Shown one piece after another: positions 259-49,395 of a DNA stretch of 58,650 nt. The stretch is from Pseudomonadota bacterium (GTDB lineage: Bacteria; Bdellovibrionota_G; JALEGL01; DATDPG01). The stretch covers positions 1 to 58,650 of the forward strand of contig JAZDDX010000021.1 of assembly GCA_043809315.1 (NCBI GenBank). The letters are read 5' to 3'. Made by a program: the position numbers and the translations under genes. Within the stretch, counting starts at the first letter, position 1; each line of letters begins with the position of its first letter. The notes beneath the pieces were generated by a model. It saw only the letters and a program-made list of their open reading frames with translations. It did no database searches and was not told the DNA's origin.

Positions 259-2274
259 TTACGATCCCACCTTAAGCGACATCCAAACGATCATGACGGC
301 GGCCAAGCCGGCCGCAAGCGCGCCGAGATAGGTCTGGATCTGGCCGGTCTGGATCTGACGCATACGGCGCCCCAATGCGATCGTCCGGCTTCCGATCAGG
401 TTCACCAGCCCGTCGACGACCCAACGGTCGAACGTCCCGTCCACGAAGACCACGATCCGAAGCAGCCACCCTGCCCCGTTCACGGCCCCGTCGACGATGA
501 CGCTGTCGAACCAGGCGCACAGGTCCGAAAACCTCCGTGTGCCGGCGACGACGGTCTTCGCGTACAGCTCGTCGACGTAATACTTGTTGAGAAGCGTCCG
601 ATAGATCCCCTCGTTCCGTTTCGCGAGGGCGACCGGAATCGACGGAGCCACACGGTAGAAACGGTACGCCGCGAAGCAACCGACCGCCGCAATCCCGACG
701 GAAATTGACGCCAGAAGCATCTCGGTCGTATGAGAGCCTTCCACGTGATGGACGATCACGGAGGAGGAGAGCCATTCCGGGAACGCCTCCGAGACGGAAG
801 CGAACGCAGGCCACCAGAGCCATCCGCCGACGACCGAAAGAACCGCCAGGATCATCAGGGGAACGGTCATGCTTAAAGGGGACTCGTGGATGTGGTGTTT
901 CACCTCTTCGGAAGCACGGCATTCGCCGTAAAAGGTCAGGAAGAGGAGCCGGAACATATAGAAGGAGGTCAAAAGCGCCCCGAGGGCCCCCATTCCCCAG
1001 AAGACCCAGCTCCGGTTCCAAGCCTGCCAAAGGATCTCGTCTTTCGAGAAGAAGCCGGCGAACGGGGGGAACCCGGCAATCGCCACAGTTGCGATGAAGA
1101 AGGTCCAGTAGGTGACCGGGATCTTCGACTTCAACCCTCCCATCTTCCGGATATCCTGTTCCCCTCCCATGGCATGGATGACACTTCCGGCCCCCAGGAA
1201 GAGGAGTGCTTTGAAGTAAGCGTGGGTCGAAAGGTGGAAGATGTCGCTGGCGTACGCACCGACGCCGCAGGCGAGGAACATGTAGCCGAGTTGGCTCACG
1301 GTCGAGTACGCGAGGACCTTCTTGATGTCGTTCTGTACCAATCCGATCGTTGCGGAGAAGAGCGCCGTCAACCCTCCGACCGTCGCAATCACGGTCAGGG
1401 TGAACGGGGCGAGATCGAAGAGGAAACTCAAGCGGGCGACCATGTAGACGCCAGCGGTGACCATCGTCGCGGCATGGATCAGGGCGGAGACCGGGGTCGG
1501 GCCGGCCATGGCATCCGGCAACCAGACGAAGAGTGGAATTTGGGCCGACTTTCCGGTTGCGCCGACGAACAGCATGAGGGTCGCGAAGGTGACGGCGCTC
1601 ATGCCGAAGATCGTGTGATGGGTGAAAAGAGCGGCGTGGGCACGAAGGACCGTGAAGTCGACGCTCCAGATGTCGAGGGCGAGACCCATCGTCCAAAGAA
1701 GGGTCATGATCCCGATCAGGAACCCGAAGTCGCCGATCCGGTTGACGATGAACGCCTTCTTCCCGGCGTCGGCGTTCGCTTTGACGTCGAACCAGAACCC
1801 GATCAGGAGGTAGCTGCAAAGCCCGACTCCCTCCCACCCGACGAACATGAGAAGCAGGTTGTCGGCAAGGACCAAAATCAACATCATCGCCATGAAGAGA
1901 TTCATGTAGGCGAAGAACCGCTCGTAATCCTTGTCGTGCCCCATGTACCCGGTCGAGTAGACGTGAATTAAGAACCCGACACCGGTCACGACGAGGGCCA
2001 TCGTGGACGAGAGGGAGTCGATCACGAAACGGATCCACGGCTCGAACTTCCCGACCGCGATCCAGGGGGTCAGGGCGTTGATCAGCACTTCCCCCTCCCC
2101 TCCGGCCCTGAGAGCCAAAAACGCCCGGACGGAGAGGACGAAGGAGACAAAAACACTGCCACAAGCGAGGGCGTGGACCATCCGGCGCCCGAACAACCTC
2201 TTCCCGAAAAAGCGGATGATGACCGAGGAGAAGAGCGGAAGCGCCGGGATCAGCCAGAGGTAGTTCGCTTCCAT
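259..2274 (-). CDS. nuoL: NADH-quinone oxidoreductase subunit L
   Basis: Motifs GWEGVGLCSYLLIGFW, GKSAQIPLFVWLPDAMAGPTPVSALIHAATMV, DIKKVLAYST. Confidence 0.98.
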   Translation of the reverse strand: MEANYLWLIPALPLFSSVIIRFFGKRLFGRRMVHALACGSVFVSFVLSVRAFLALRAGGEGEVLINALTPWIAVGKFEPWIRFVIDSLSSTMALVVTGVGFLIHVYSTGYMGHDKDYERFFAYMNLFMAMMLILVLADNLLLMFVGWEGVGLCSYLLIGFWFDVKANADAGKKAFIVNRIGDFGFLIGIMTLLWTMGLALDIWSVDFTVLRAHAALFTHHTIFGMSAVTFATLMLFVGATGKSAQIPLFVWLPDAMAGPTPVSALIHAATMVTAGVYMVARLSFLFDLAPFTLTVIATVGGLTALFSATIGLVQNDIKKVLAYSTVSQLGYMFLACGVGAYASDIFHLSTHAYFKALLFLGAGSVIHAMGGEQDIRKMGGLKSKIPVTYWTFFIATVAIAGFPPFAGFFSKDEILWQAWNRSWVFWGMGALGALLTSFYMFRLLFLTFYGECRASEEVKHHIHESPLSMTVPLMILAVLSVVGGWLWWPAFASVSEAFPEWLSSSVIVHHVEGSHTTEMLLASISVGIAAVGCFAAYRFYRVAPSIPVALAKRNEGIYRTLLNKYYVDELYAKTVVAGTRRFSDLCAWFDSVIVDGAVNGAGWLLRIVVFVDGTFDRWVVDGLVNLIGSRTIALGRRMRQIQTGQIQTYLGALAAGLAAVMIVWMSLKVGS

Positions 2275-3194: not shown

Positions 3195-3677
3195 CTATTT
3201 GGCGAGTTCGATGTCCTTGGGGCGCACGTAGCGGTACACCAGCTCCCGCATCGACGCGACGGTCCCTTCGAATTTCGTCGTATGGAAGATCGCCCCGGTC
3301 GGGCACGGCTCGACGCAGAGGCCGCAAAACATGCACTTGGAGATGTCGATGTCGAACCGGGTCGGATACTTCGTCTTTGGCGTCGGTTTCCCGGTGATCT
3401 TGTTGGCGATCGTGGTCTTCGCCCCTTTGACATCCTCAATGAGGATGCAGGCGATCGGGCAGGCCTGCTCGCAGATGTGGCAGCTGATGCAGATCTCCAT
3501 CTCGACGTCGAGGATTCCCCGATACCGCTCCGGGAGACGCGCCCGGACATCGACGTCGGGGTACTGAACCGTGACCGGCTGACGGAAGAGGTGCTTGAAT
3601 GTGACGAACATCCCCTTCCCGGTGGAGAGGACCCCTTCCCCGATGTCGCTGAACCAAGTAGTGAAGGGGTTAGACAT
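3195..3677 (-). CDS. nuoI: NADH-quinone oxidoreductase subunit I (2x[4Fe-4S]); frame continues past TAG to 3105
   Basis: TVQYPD, ERYRG, CISCHICEQACP and CMFCGLCVEPCP motifs. Confidence 0.96.
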   Translation of the reverse strand: MSNPFTTWFSDIGEGVLSTGKGMFVTFKHLFRQPVTVQYPDVDVRARLPERYRGILDVEMEICISCHICEQACPIACILIEDVKGAKTTIANKITGKPTPKTKYPTRFDIDISKCMFCGLCVEPCPTGAIFHTTKFEGTVASMRELVYRYVRPKDIELAK

Positions 3678-4962
3678 GGGTCCCTCGCAGCAGCATGAAT
3701 CCGGCGGTCCAGAGAAGACAGACGAAGGCGATCGGGACCAACTTTTTCCAGCAGAGATCCATCATCTGATCGATCCGATACCGGGGAAGCGTCCAACGGA
3801 GCCAGATGATGACGAAGACGAAGAAGTAGACCTTCCCGAGGAAAAGGATCGCCGTGACGGCCCAGAACTCAGAATAGGCCTGAACGACGAACGCCCCCGC
3901 GAGACTCAGAACCGCCAGGACAATCCAAGCCGATCGGGAGAAGATGTTGAACGGGATCCCCGAAAGGAGGCTGAAGATCGATTTGCCGCGCAAGAGCTGT
4001 GGGATGAGCCGGGAAAGGTAAATCACGCTCTTGGCGACGAAGAAGAAGGCGAAAAAGAGAAGGAACGCCGCCACGAAATAGTTCGTTCGTGAGGGCTGCC
4101 ATCCACCGAGGAACGCAGTCACGGCGATCGCGCTGATCAGGAACATGTTGGCGTATTCCCCCATGTAAAAGATCCCCCAACGGATCCCCGAGTATTCGGT
4201 GTTGTAGCCGGAGACCAGTTCCGATTCGGCCTCCGGAAGATCGAACGGGATCCGGTTCACCTCCGCCAACGCTGCAATGAAATAAACGAAGAATGCGATG
4301 AACGGTCCCGGGAAGGCCGAGAAGAGGAACCAGTGACGCGCCCCACCCGCCTGGGCGGCATTGAGATCCTGAAGGCTCATCGAGCCGGCGAGAAGAACCG
4401 GAATCATCAGGGCCAACCCAACGGGGATCTCGTAGCTGACGATCTGCGCGGCCGAACGCATGGCTCCCAGGAGGGACCACTTGTTGTTCGACGCCCAGCC
4501 GGCCAGGAGGACGCCGACGACGACGAACGACGAGACGGCGATCAGATAGAGAAGCCCGACGTTCAAGTCGGCTGCAAAGAGACGGGGCCCGAACGGGATC
4601 GTCACAAAGCTTAAAGCGGCGGCTGCAAAAACGACGTAAGGAGCGACACGGAACAGAAAACGATCGGCCCCCCGTGGGATCATATCTTCTTTGAGGATCA
4701 GTTTGATCCCGTCGGCCAGAAACTGGAGAAGCCCTTCGGGTCCGACCCGATTGCACCCGACGCGGGCCTGCATACGCCCCGCCACACGTCGTTCGACGTA
4801 GGTCGAGAACCCCCCCATGAGGCCGGCGCCGATCCCGAAGATCAGGACGGTCGCGGCGAGGACCATCCCGATGAGATAAACCAGCTCGATCGGAAGGCGG
4901 TTTAAGAACGGACAATGAGCCGCGGCAATCAACTGGTCGAGAGCGTTCTGGAGATTACTCAT
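3670..4962 (-). CDS. nuoH: NADH-quinone oxidoreductase subunit H (with hydrophobic insertion)
   Basis: [62 protein letters not shown]. Confidence 0.97.
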
Positions 4963-47324: not shown

Positions 47325-47400
47325 GGGGCTGTAGCTCAGCTGGGAGAGCGCCTCGTTCGCAACGAGGAGGTCGTCGGTTCGAACCCGATCAGCTCCACCA
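47325..47400 (+). tRNA. tRNA-Ala(CGC)
   Basis: GGGGCTG/CAGCTCC stem with G3:U70, CCTCG-TTCGCAA-CGAGG arm, GGTTCGAACCC, CCA; 76 nt. Confidence 0.97.
47371..47400 (+). repeat. att-like direct repeat, copy 1 (tRNA-Ala 3' end)
   Basis: TCGTCGGTTCGAACCCGATCAGCTCCACCA; 29/30 identical to 48059-48088. Confidence 0.95.
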
Positions 47401-47442
47401 ATTTGGGGACACACGACTGGACCCGGTGCTATTCTGCAAGAT

Positions 47443-47619
47443 GTGAAGACGCCGGAGATCGACATCTCTCTTCTAGAAGCGGGTCTGTCTCTGACTCCCG
47501 AGGAACGTCTTAGCCAACACCAAGAGGCCTTGAATCTTCTCGAGGCCCTCATCAAAGCCAGAACCGAGATTGCCGATGGCAGATCTAAACCGACTTCTCC
47601 AACGACTTCTCGATCGTAA
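47443..47619 (+). CDS. 58-aa putative antitoxin/partner protein
   Basis: Not in ORF track. GTG start gives MKTPEIDISLLEAGLSLTPEERLSQHQEALNLLEALIKARTEIADGRSKPTSPTTSRS; overlaps the nucleotidyltransferase start. Confidence 0.7.
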   Translation: MKTPEIDISLLEAGLSLTPEERLSQHQEALNLLEALIKARTEIADGRSKPTSPTTSRS

Positions 47620-48058
47620 GTTCGAGTTCGTATTGGTCGGTGGCTTTGCCGGAGTTCTTCACGGCGCCTCCCAGGTCACGCGCGACATCGACATTTGCAT
47701 GGCGCTGGATCCGTCGATAATCGGTCAGTTGAGATCCGAGTTGGCTGATCTCCATCCAGTTCACCGGCAAACCCCGCAAAAGCTGTCGTTTCTCGACCAT
47801 CCGACCGGACTTGCGACCGTCCGGAATCTCTATCTTCAGACCGATCTCGGTCCGCTCGACATCCTGTCGGAGATCATCGGCGTGGGGCCGTTTGACGTCG
47901 TGGCTTCCGGTGCTACGACGATTTTCTTGTATGGAATGAAATGTCTCGTGATTGGGCTTGATGACCTGATCGCCTCGAAAGAGGCCTTGGGGCGCGACCG
48001 GGATCGTCTCGCCGTCACGGAGTTGCGAGCGATTCGTGACAAGATTCAGAAGTCCTAA
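47576..48058 (+). CDS. Nucleotidyltransferase (DUF6036/AbiEii-like, pol-beta superfamily)
   Basis: VLVGGFAGVLHG...TRDID, G.LDI, LIASK.ALGR.RD motifs. Confidence 0.85.
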   Translation: MADLNRLLQRLLDRKFEFVLVGGFAGVLHGASQVTRDIDICMALDPSIIGQLRSELADLHPVHRQTPQKLSFLDHPTGLATVRNLYLQTDLGPLDILSEIIGVGPFDVVASGATTIFLYGMKCLVIGLDDLIASKEALGRDRDRLAVTELRAIRDKIQKS

Positions 48059-48088
48059 TCGTTGGTTCGAACCCGATCAGCTCCACCA
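48059..48088 (+). repeat. att-like direct repeat, copy 2
   Basis: TCGTTGGTTCGAACCCGATCAGCTCCACCA, starting immediately after the NTase stop codon. Confidence 0.95.
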
Positions 48089-48130
48089 TTTCTGTCTTCT
48101 TCGCAATGCCTAAGGACTGCGACAGGTTCT

Positions 48131-48976
48131 TCATCCGCACGCTCCATCACGAGTTGCTACGCAGTCTGCCACTTCTGTAATGGTATTCTTGCTAGGACTG
48201 CAACCTGTAGTTTTTTGCGTAACGTTACATGAAACCTTGGAAGCCCCGTTCTTATCCGTCACTTGCACGCAGAGAGTAGAACAGGATGCGTCGATAGCTC
48301 CACCCCCTGAGCCTCTCCCGACGATCACGGGTCCGTTACCTCCATCCACAAGTACATCATACGGCATCTCGATCGAGCTTTTGGAGACCCCACAGCCATC
48401 GGCTGATGCTTGATGGCCCTCGATAGAGAACGTCATATTCAGACAGGAATAAATGTAATTGGGAGTTTCATGCTGCTCTCCAAAAACAATTGCTCCTCCT
48501 GCATTGTTGAATGAAAAGGGTACCGCGGGACAGTTGAGGCTATTTGAATCAAAACTGAACGTGTCACGAACGTCACCGCTTGTGGCCGTCACCGTGCCGA
48601 ATCCTGTACAGGTATCCAGAACTTCACCCGACAAATAATCGGCCACTTTCAAGAAGCCTTGATCGCTCACGCATTTGACGTCCACCGTTTCTTCCTTCTG
48701 ATCCGCCGTTCTTGTAATGCACTGATCAAGAGGAGTTGGAATTGGTTCGTTCGACTTGGGCCATGGGATCACGTAGATCTCTCCCGTGGCAATACGTTCG
48801 GCGTTCAATACGGCCAAGAAACGGTTGATTGCGTCTGTTGCGTTTATTGCGGTCAGTTCCCCGCTTGGTGACCGAAATTCCGGATCTACGTTGGTTGGAT
48901 CACGTACGTCCAATCCGCCGCGGCCGCAGCCAACTATCGCCAAGCTGATAAAGAACATCATGACGTTTGTTTTCAT
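48131..48976 (-). CDS. Cys-rich hypothetical lipoprotein (lower GC)
   Basis: Start revised to ATG 48976 (GGAAGG RBS); lipobox IVGC; 12 further Cys; many A/T-ending codons. Confidence 0.75.
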   Translation of the reverse strand: MKTNVMMFFISLAIVGCGRGGLDVRDPTNVDPEFRSPSGELTAINATDAINRFLAVLNAERIATGEIYVIPWPKSNEPIPTPLDQCITRTADQKEETVDVKCVSDQGFLKVADYLSGEVLDTCTGFGTVTATSGDVRDTFSFDSNSLNCPAVPFSFNNAGGAIVFGEQHETPNYIYSCLNMTFSIEGHQASADGCGVSKSSIEMPYDVLVDGGNGPVIVGRGSGGGAIDASCSTLCVQVTDKNGASKVSCNVTQKTTGCSPSKNTITEVADCVATRDGACG

Positions 48977-49032
48977 GGACGTTCGCCTTCCATCCAATCC
49001 GGGGTCACGCCGAGCCAAAGCCCTTGGGTTCA

Positions 49033-49155
49033 TCATGCTTGCGCCTTCATGAGGTAAGAGTCCTTTAGTTTTAGATACAGAAGCACGATCAGTGCTGCCA
49101 AAGTCGCGGCGGCGATTCCGATCAGACCGATGATGATCGAGGATAATCGTTTCAT
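49033..49155 (-). CDS. 40-aa single-TM small protein
   Basis: GGAGGA RBS; MKRLSSIIIGLIGIAAATLAALIVLLYLKLKDSYLMKAQA. Confidence 0.6.
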   Translation of the reverse strand: MKRLSSIIIGLIGIAAATLAALIVLLYLKLKDSYLMKAQA

Positions 49156-49256
49156 CGGCTTCCTCCAATCGCAGTTTGATCCGAACCACAGAATAACAGC
49201 GTCGCCAGAAGAACAAGAATGATTCCGAAAAGCGCGTCGATCATGAACTTGGGTAG

Positions 49257-49272
49257 AGCACGTTGCGTGCCA
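49257..49272 (-). promoter_or_regulatory. Putative sigma54 promoter
   Basis: TGGCAC-GCAAC-GTGCT (GG-N10-GC) upstream of the 40-aa ORF. Confidence 0.65.
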
Positions 49273-49395
49273 CTCCCTTCCCCGCACGAAATCGTGTCAG
49301 GGGAACGGTTCCTGACACGCGAGGTGTCAGGTTCGCCGTCAGCCTACCCCGCCTCATTGACTCCCTCCCCTTTCGTGGTAGACCGGCGCGCGGGA

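Follow-up and report, generated by a model that had tools for sequence, protein, structure and literature searches.

The 3′ end of the single tRNA-Ala(CGC) gene of this genome is followed, 688 bases on, by a second copy of itself, and the insert behind the tRNA is one operon of two overlapping genes, encoding a 58-aa protein and a 160-aa nucleotidyltransferase (NTase) that together resemble, in modelled structure, the MenAT1 toxin-antitoxin (TA) pair. One uncharacterised family of such pairs, which spans several phyla, keeps target-derived direct repeats at about 12 independent sites, of which the islet described here is the cleanest case, with a 29/30 repeat at a single-copy tRNA. We regard the recurrence of these repeats around one gene pair as the interesting part, and suggest that the islet itself is most likely a CIME-like remnant or hitchhiker. 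The window referred to below is the whole stretch analysed, 58,650 bp of contig JAZDDX010000021.1, from a 2.42-Mb assembly with 45 tRNAs; the features of the islet all lie on its + strand.

Anatomy of the islet at tRNA-Ala(CGC)

An intact tRNA-Ala(CGC) with encoded CCA was located at 47325..47400 by ARAGORN, and it is the single tRNA with this anticodon among the 45 of the assembly. Repeat and DNA searches place the left (attL-type) copy of the repeat at 47371..47403; it starts 2 nt before the T-stem and extends to 3 nt past the CCA, with the T-arm and the 3′ acceptor strand both included. The right (attR-type) copy, found by the same searches at 48059..48091, would be the displaced 3′ end of the tRNA and follows the NTase stop codon (TAA, 48056-48058) without a gap; over their full length the two copies are 94% identical (31/33). 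A preliminary description of this DNA had reported a repeat of the last 30 nt of the tRNA, 25 nt of it exact and 29/30 overall, 688 bp downstream and adjoining the NTase stop, and this is confirmed for 47371-47400 against 48059-48088. Its view that the repeats are att-like also holds, in that they are real copies and start at the T-arm. With up to three mismatches, the 25-mer occurs exactly twice in the window, against 0.00 occurrences expected from 100 shuffles. The sole difference over the 30 nt is a C-to-T change in the right copy, by which a C-G pair of the T-stem becomes U.G.

Between the copies there are only two coherent ORFs, in agreement with the earlier statement that the insert holds a two-gene module alone. 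The upstream ORF (47443..47619; ORF list, alignment, profile search and complex model) starts with GTG and encodes the 58-aa putative antitoxin, while the downstream one (47576..48058; Pfam, alignment, structure model and Foldseek) encodes the putative toxin, an NTase with a predicted MenT1-like fold; the two overlap by 44 nt. The length of 160 aa for the NTase refers to the ATG at 47576, and the ORF list puts a TTG start at 47570. A leaderless start had been suggested behind TGCTATTCT (47427..47435), a putative extended -10-like motif that was read from the sequence 7 nt before the GTG; a strict promoter scan gave no promoter at TGCTATTCT.

The GC content of the islet is 55.3%, compared with 59.7% for the genome, and falls at the 9.6th percentile of 660-nt windows. 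Across 15 genomes at the level of the order, the best NTase match outside the window has 47% identity, and four relatives from the same family carry distant NTase paralogs only (at most 34% identity), at other places. Three relatives of other genera (G001, G002 and G004) keep the SLT gene upstream of tRNA-Ala(CGC), with the module absent behind the tRNA, and their downstream flanks are unalignable with the window. A word-index search returned 641 NTase relatives at E<=0.001; the closest, 76% identical, sits on a 1-kb contig, a JGI metagenome scan reached at most 58%, and no sequence of the same species was found. PLSDB (72,556 plasmid records) contained two distant matches only, at 32-33% identity, and viral contigs contained no relatives of the module. 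The sequencing reads (two runs from one study, the best with 0.10 of sampled words) yielded three low-depth pieces of the organism, at 47500-47679, 48430-48592 and 49114-49290, none of them across a junction; such pieces came from one of the two runs, and neither a same-species empty site nor an excised circle was seen. Two read joints had been reported, from 47349 or 47353 to 48064; these carry 22-26 foreign letters, belong to the tRNAs of other organisms and were rejected.

The gene pair and its likeness to MenAT1

In the preliminary description the 58-aa ORF was an unannotated frame. Its conservation shows that it is a true gene, because the motif AGFDLSLI..L.LTPEER..QH..AL was seen on inspection in an overlapping upstream frame at all 80 of the 80 genome loci fetched via the NTase, an automatic rule recovered the small ORF at 133 of 160 genome and metagenome loci, and a profile of the small protein, run against 1.84 billion cluster representatives, matched 2,152 of them at E<=0.001 (524 at E<=1e-10), which gives the family a size of about 2,150 cluster representatives. 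D7, L15, R22, H26 and L30 are invariant in an alignment of 31 sequences. Pfam, NCBIfam and PADLOC gave no match for the product of the small ORF, and Pfam, applied to the 31 members, found no family common to them; when the profile was compared with all PDB chains at E<=10, two unrelated weak matches were obtained, and the MenA1/MenAT1 entry was absent.

By sequence the NTase lies outside AbiEii/DUF1814, since at E<=1 Pfam matches only DUF6036 (E 6.4e-5, 23.3 bits, cut-off 23.6) and DUF2204, both weakly; among 25 members of the NTase family, 20 match DUF6036 and 15 match DUF2204. The PADLOC AbiEii model is matched weakly (E 0.005), NCBIfam has no match, and the ESM Atlas offers unnamed clusters only, with scores of 0.79. 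The AlphaFold (AF2) model of the NTase has a pLDDT of 89.6, and Foldseek ranks MenT1 of the MenAT1 complex first (8an5_B, E 1e-6, TM 0.65, 24% identity), with 8an4 near; TM1012, LnuA and ANT(2'')-Ia are further good matches (ranks 2-3 and 8-12). A profile alignment sets T35-R36-D37-I38-D39 on the TRDVD of MenT1. The motifs of the NTase are G22-G23, T35-R36-D37-x-D39, K135 and D143; G22, G23, T35, R36 and D37 are invariant across the 25 sequences, as are K135 and D143 in the family, and the latter two are candidate counterparts of the C-terminal catalytic residues K137 and D152 of MenT1. The earlier comparison with toxins of the MenT type is upheld by fold, and the model suggests that both the fold and the N-terminal catalytic motif (GG..., TRDxD) are MenT-like. 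The second NTase copy in G045 is no recent duplicate but a divergent paralog.

A complex model of the two proteins reached an ipSAE of 0.78 (median of three runs), compared with 0.24 for the best control; 116 of 157 solved complexes reach that mark, as do 2 of 215 mismatched pairs. Agreement in contacts between the three runs is 100%, with a pLDDT of at least 73 for the partner. In the model R22, H26 and L30 of the small protein contact NTase residues 27-36, the region of the catalytic loop. As the MenAT1 complex has already been solved, the pass may come in part from likeness to it. Gene order and overlap are conserved across loci. From the MenT1-like fold together with the invariant residues modelled on the catalytic loop, we infer that the pair is a MenAT1-like TA module that is outside both published families by sequence; the toxicity, the tRNA substrate and the antitoxin function ascribed to it are predictions from fold and model.

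The account of MenAT1 in PMC10435456 describes MenA1 as a 68-aa helical antitoxin that is encoded upstream of MenT1 and blocks its active sites; it also describes MenT1 as adding CMP to tRNA 3′-CCA ends, with acceptor-stem constructs ending in CCA being sufficient. MenAT1 (Rv0078B-Rv0078A of Mycobacterium tuberculosis) and the islet pair have in common a short helical protein of ~60-70 aa encoded upstream of a small NTase, an alignable TRDxD loop, and a small protein that, for the islet, is predicted to lie over the active-site face as MenA1 does; MenA1 in addition bridges two MenT1 protomers. The islet NTase is shorter than MenT1 (160 vs 197 aa) and has weak DUF6036/DUF2204 matches instead of an AbiEii/DUF1814 match in Pfam, and the small protein has no homology to MenA1 detectable by sequence in the PDB profile search at E<=10. 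HEPN-MNT pairs differ from the islet pair: HEPN domains carry an Rx4-6H motif, while the partner here has just 58 aa, no Pfam match and an Rx3H spacing (R22, H26).

Target-derived repeats around related pairs

A survey of homologous pairs for tRNA-end flanks had been suggested, and repeats, some of them from tRNA ends, do flank some of these pairs. We aligned 350 nt upstream with 365 nt downstream of each module at the 150 loci with enough flank, and found direct repeats scoring at least 15 (reversed-sequence null maximum 13) at 13 of the 150. In a stricter flank test, 11 of 122 true positions were positive, compared with 5 of 528 positions shifted by 1.2-2.4 kb in the same loci; with a score of at least 20 the numbers were 10 true and 0 shifted (Fisher p 1.3e-5). 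Because L057 and L059 represent one orthologous site, the 13 loci correspond to about 12 independent sites.

The identity of the repeats varies considerably, as does their length (16 to ~112 nt). While the repeat in the window is the 3′ end of tRNA-Ala, that of L038 consists of the 3′ end of tRNA-Val(GAC) plus 12 nt of trailer, and that of L091 is the 3′ end of tRNA-Ser(GCT). L172, L050 and L175 have tRNA-3′-end-like fragments on the opposite strand, which in L175 form tRNA-like blocks of roughly 100 nt. L172 and L175 had been considered as complete tRNAs, and this was dropped, the repeats being fragments and not genes; Rfam at E<=0.01 found nothing on L175, L050, L197, L198 and L186. Six repeat pairs, half of the total, consist of sequence other than tRNA. 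In L124 it is the final 74 nt of a DUF885 gene, stop codon included, in L016 part of the 3′ end of a psd gene, and in L057 and L059 the signal-peptide codons at the 5′ end of a GDSL-lipase gene; L069 (112 nt), L075 (66 nt) and L072 (16 nt) have repeats without assigned identity. The distance from repeat to repeat is 649-1015 bp, leaving room for the operon only.

T-arm-like motifs are 6.4x denser within 230 nt of the module (12 in 70.7 kb) than in the rest of the loci (15 in 564 kb), and seven tRNA-adjacent loci have no repeat on the far side. Williams (2002) is said to have provided the original analysis of where within tRNA genes integrase att sites lie. A T-loop sublocation is described for integrase att sites in bioRxiv 10.1101/2020.11.02.365908, and the partial tRNA-derived repeats (the window, L091, L038, L172 and L050) begin, in five cases out of five, in the 5′ T-stem or the T-loop.

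Several loci have a more complex arrangement. L049 is a tandem array of a tRNA-Arg, an ATPase gene, a tRNA-Arg 3′ fragment, the module, an HNH gene and a further fragment, which is what accretion at an att site would give. L059 is not a plain att junction, because its right repeat lies 83 nt inside native sequence common to relatives without the module. G041 has, in addition, two incomplete copies (93% and 86% identity), both joined to a tRNA-Ser 3′ fragment with no tRNA gene adjacent, and the relative G046 shows this arrangement too.

We also looked for clean empty sites of the sister islets L091, L069, L059 and L038, and obtained one-sided matches only, because the flanks are non-syntenic. 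For L069 there was no empty site; a single relative, G073, carries the pair (76% identity), but at a position that does not match. At the tRNA-Val(GAC) site of L038, three relatives (G116, G120 and G124) are without the module, the similarity ending at the 3′ end of the tRNA; in G120 a terminator-like hairpin follows directly after tRNA-Val. G121 has the module at the tRNA-Val site, at ~66-71% nucleotide identity.

The earlier observation that there is no integrase holds both between the repeats and on the 58-kb contig: PF00589 has no match on the contig of the islet, and its 10 matches in the genome are all elsewhere; the genome encodes roughly seven non-Xer tyrosine recombinases. At the related loci, a home-made profile for integrases, based on 9 recombinases from the genome of the islet and used without an independent positive control, matched none of 4,528 ORFs from 160 loci. 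Pfam, applied to 167 flanking ORFs at 75 of these loci, gave no recombinase either; for the other 85, absence refers to the home-made profile by itself, and the search reached ~2.5-3 kb either way of the pair. The neighbouring genes belong to the core set, for example rpoC, secA, relA/spoT, nuo genes, psd and lytB. The pair is patchily distributed and occurs in several phyla as a solitary insertion between core genes. A search of the literature on TA modules between direct repeats at tRNAs had nothing but generic island papers among the matches listed, and the pattern may be published already.

A proposed origin, its rivals and its relation to known elements

We believe that 47401-48058 is, with somewhat better than even probability, an integrase-made but integrase-less (CIME-like) minimal islet that carries a MenAT1-like TA pair and is kept by addiction. 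The segment would be horizontally acquired DNA that entered by site-specific recombination within the T-arm-to-CCA part of the single-copy tRNA-Ala(CGC), at its 3′ end; this would have restored a complete tRNA and moved the old 3′ end to 48059-48088. A foreign origin agrees with the lower GC content, the lack of close NTase orthologs in the family relatives and the absence of the module behind tRNA-Ala(CGC) in G001, G002 and G004. As the insert is without a recombinase, it would count in ICE/IME terms as att-flanked, integrase-less and CIME-like. The NTase would most likely add nucleotides to tRNA 3′-CCA ends and so block charging, and the 58-aa helical protein would neutralise it by binding over the catalytic loop; addiction by the pair could be the reason why the pair is what is left between the att copies. 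The reading given in the preliminary description, a TA-like cassette that is either the remnant of a larger island or mobilised in trans, is still the best in our view and is strengthened by the roughly 12 sites flanked by target repeats. The T-arm starts, the L049 array and the tRNA-Val site of L038 favour junctions made by an integrase. There are also points against this explanation. If the islets were decayed islands, some integrase-bearing intermediates would be expected, and there are none among the 160 loci; L049 alone shows extra genes, yet it too is without an integrase. In addition, repeats as diverse as tRNA sequence, gene 3′ ends, a gene 5′ end and tRNA-like blocks would need many different integrases. 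The junction of L059 also counts against it, and so does the failure to obtain a same-species empty site, a circle or a read across a junction.

It is these points that keep alive a route without any dedicated recombinase, which we consider unlikely for the islet but still take seriously. Here the element would be an integrase-independent minimal cassette, in which a circle of the operon plus a captured target end enters by a single Campbell-type crossover via RecA or another host pathway, can be excised again via the direct repeats, and spreads among genomes with conserved tRNA and core-gene ends. The variation of the repeats from 16 to ~112 nt over tRNA ends, coding 3′ and 5′ ends and whole tRNA-like blocks is in line with this, and the route is still live because none of the 160 loci has a recombinase nearby, core genes make up the flanks, L059 looks in its geometry more like a homologous segment in duplicate than like a core att site, and G041, like G046, has partial copies on tRNA-Ser 3′ fragments without a tRNA gene. 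The five T-stem or T-loop starts out of five, however, are unlike randomly captured fragments and like the sites of tyrosine integrases. The model also leaves the capture of the first target fragment unexplained, a homology of 25-30 nt is near the lower limit for RecA, and no circle was seen in the reads. That there was no insertion at all, the second copy being what is left of a tRNA duplicated in tandem on the spot or else a product of faulty assembly, seems to us scarcely credible. G001 does have a disrupted tandem tRNA-Ala(CGC) copy with a promoter at the same locus, and the reads obtained span neither junction of the window; against this, the similarity stops exactly at the T-arm, with nothing tRNA-like upstream of 48059, and the islet has an atypical GC content. 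Faulty assembly is unlikely because the copies differ at one base, the exact block is just 25 nt, and the architecture is repeated with different tRNAs in independent assemblies, which speaks equally against a local duplication.

Two further alternatives concern function. The pair might not be a TA module, the NTase being a benign small-molecule or antibiotic NTase (as LnuA or ANT(2'')) or else an antitoxin of the MNT type, with the small protein acting as its regulator or chaperone. TM1012, the function of which is unknown, LnuA and ANT(2'')-Ia are good fold matches too, and the Pfam matches to DUF6036/DUF2204 are weak; we nonetheless think this quite improbable, given that MenT1 is the best fold match and has the TRDxD loop in common, that the small overlapping upstream gene product is predicted over the active-site loop as in MenA1-MenT1, that the insertions are solitary and patchy among core genes of several phyla, and that the partner is far too small for HEPN and has R-x3-H where HEPN has Rx4-6H. 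The other alternative gives the downstream tRNA 3′-end copy a working part in the module: on the operon transcript it would serve as decoy substrate or RNA-level antitoxin, or else as a signal for processing and stabilisation. The copy lies 0 nt from the NTase stop in the window, 7 nt in L091 and 39 nt in L038, and the modification of acceptor-stem constructs ending in CCA by MenT1, as described in PMC10435456, would make such a role conceivable. Yet these are the only 3 of 161 loci where a tRNA-end copy on the strand of the module lies no more than 40 nt from the NTase stop, the tRNA-like repeats of L172, L050 and L175 are on the opposite strand, and six repeat pairs are of non-tRNA sequence. 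Moreover, no acceptor helix can form in the downstream copy, because the 5′ acceptor strand is absent, and a strict promoter/terminator scan placed no terminator-like site there. The preliminary proposal that the T-arm/ACCA copy acts as a processing signal or substrate mimic finds no support in the survey of the family, and we hold it to be very improbable.

The islet as we prefer to read it, integrase-made and integrase-less, comes closest to the CIME, defined in PMC5704250 (section 2.3) as an att-flanked element without integrase that has no recombinase or transfer genes. The likeness lies in direct repeats of a tRNA 3′ end at both ends, in the lack of recombinase and transfer genes, and in the tandem relative L049. 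Unlike CIMEs, the islet is far smaller (688 bp, one operon) and its descent from an ICE or IME is putative; its cargo recurs at many different targets, and no integrase-bearing relatives were seen among the 160 loci. With islands and prophages that integrate into tRNA genes by a tyrosine integrase at the T-loop sublocation, it has in common a repeat from T-arm to CCA, a regenerated tRNA, atypical GC and a presence that varies among relatives, but it has no integrase gene, which would normally adjoin the tRNA-proximal att site, and it is smaller by two to three orders of magnitude. Units of one or two genes with the recombinase encoded elsewhere are also known as pdif modules and integron cassettes, and TA pairs are common among their cargo. 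They are bounded by XerC/D sites and by attC, respectively, while the islet is bounded by duplicated target ends.

To our knowledge, chromosomal TA pairs are scattered among core genes in most bacteria, and the route by which they arrive is largely unknown. We speculate, with more doubt than conviction, that the family as a whole consists of minimal mobile TA cassettes of ~0.65-1.0 kb that lack a recombinase and move with a short copy of a target end (the T-arm-to-CCA part of a tRNA, or a core-gene 3′ or 5′ end), by resident integrases or by Campbell-type recombination; if true, solitary TA modules of the chromosome, whose spread among core genes has long lacked an explanation, would have a concrete and testable route. 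The family of TA pairs is undescribed, and on fold and model it would add a short DUF6036-like branch with a new type of antitoxin to the MenT-like tRNA-modifying toxins. The defined junctions of the islet let excision, circle formation, and integrase or RecA dependence be probed.

The spacers on either side of the pair deserve a separate remark. On the left, most of the 42-nt gap between the tRNA and the small ORF is occupied by a REP-like palindromic element (47401..47429, recognised from genome copy counts; 21-nt core 47405-47425) that is specific to the lineage. The genome has 22 copies with up to three mismatches; with up to two, there are 15 in G000, 10 in G002, 4 in G004 and none in G001 or G003, and a reversed-pattern control gave 0. 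The copy at 47401..47429 is without the right AATT arm. The left spacer is in this sense a host-lineage element and not obviously foreign, which counts against the explanation that we favour. On the right, the T-rich stretch past the second copy (48089..48130) is probably the native trailer of the tRNA, because it resembles the trailer of tRNA-Ala(CGC) in the relative G004, a weak likeness in which 9 of the first 12 bases are common.

The tRNA-Ala(CGC) locus and the DNA behind the islet

The distal repeat that closes the islet is immediately followed by a 361-aa ORF (48131-49216, minus strand) with a GC content of 50.8%, compared to 59.7% for the genome. This ORF has no match in Pfam and may represent an earlier arrival of foreign DNA at this tRNA.

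In G001, a relative of another genus, the promoter region is present twice: upstream of the intact tRNA-Ala(CGC) it recurs together with ~56 nt from the 5' end of the tRNA (L002, contig C175, ~1590-1850, minus strand), and this partial copy is broken in the T-loop by ~130 nt of unassigned sequence. Within this bacterial family, the tRNA-Ala(CGC) locus appears to be a hot spot for rearrangements.

A REP-like palindromic element between tRNA and small ORF

The spacer between the tRNA and the small ORF is largely occupied by a REP-like palindromic element (47401-47429), whose stem, AATTCGGG...CCCGAATT, encloses a 21-nt core; in this copy the right arm is absent. Allowing up to 3 mismatches, the genome of the window holds 22 copies, several of which are inverted pairs and three of which immediately adjoin tRNA genes; places outside the window include C16:58136-58156, C23:11593-11613, C11:124740-124794, C33:10423-10481 and C38:111073-111134. 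The core is kept across genera, with 10 copies in the relative G002 and 4 in G004; a search for it in the relatives G001 and G003 gave 0 copies in either.

Other settings of the NTase family

Two distant NTase paralogs (31-32% identity) are encoded in the genome of the window, both on the minus strand, at C24:91520-91984 (L014) and C29:96407-96793 (L015). At the C24 paralog, the motif of the small ORF recurs as LSLTPAERL in a 51-aa ORF, which sits downstream of the NTase rather than upstream, with a 4-nt overlap.

Many family members stand alone as insertions, each at the 3' end of a core gene that is highly conserved: behind rpoC (L022, L027), secA (L039) and a nuo/Mrp antiporter-type gene (L043, L053), and between relA/spoT and gmk (L029). 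No flanking repeats were found at any of these loci at the survey's threshold (score of at least 15).

At L038, where the module lies between tRNA-Val(GAC) repeats, a second, unrelated NTase gene (3569-4015, plus strand; Pfam Adenyl_transf/Polbeta/NTP_transf_2) immediately follows the distal repeat.

The L091-type module, which at L091 lies between tRNA-Ser(GCT) repeats, has additional copies, partial or degraded, at L197 (G041:C17), L198 (G041:C10, ~36.3-36.8 kb) and L186 (G046:C254). In front of each lie a tRNA-Ser 3' fragment of 20-28 nt and a common ~19-nt stretch, and there is no tRNA gene near any of them. Judged by eye from sequence motifs, ORFs adjoining the L198 copy may encode an AbrB-like antitoxin and, with the motif HPFLDGNKR, a toxin of the Doc type.
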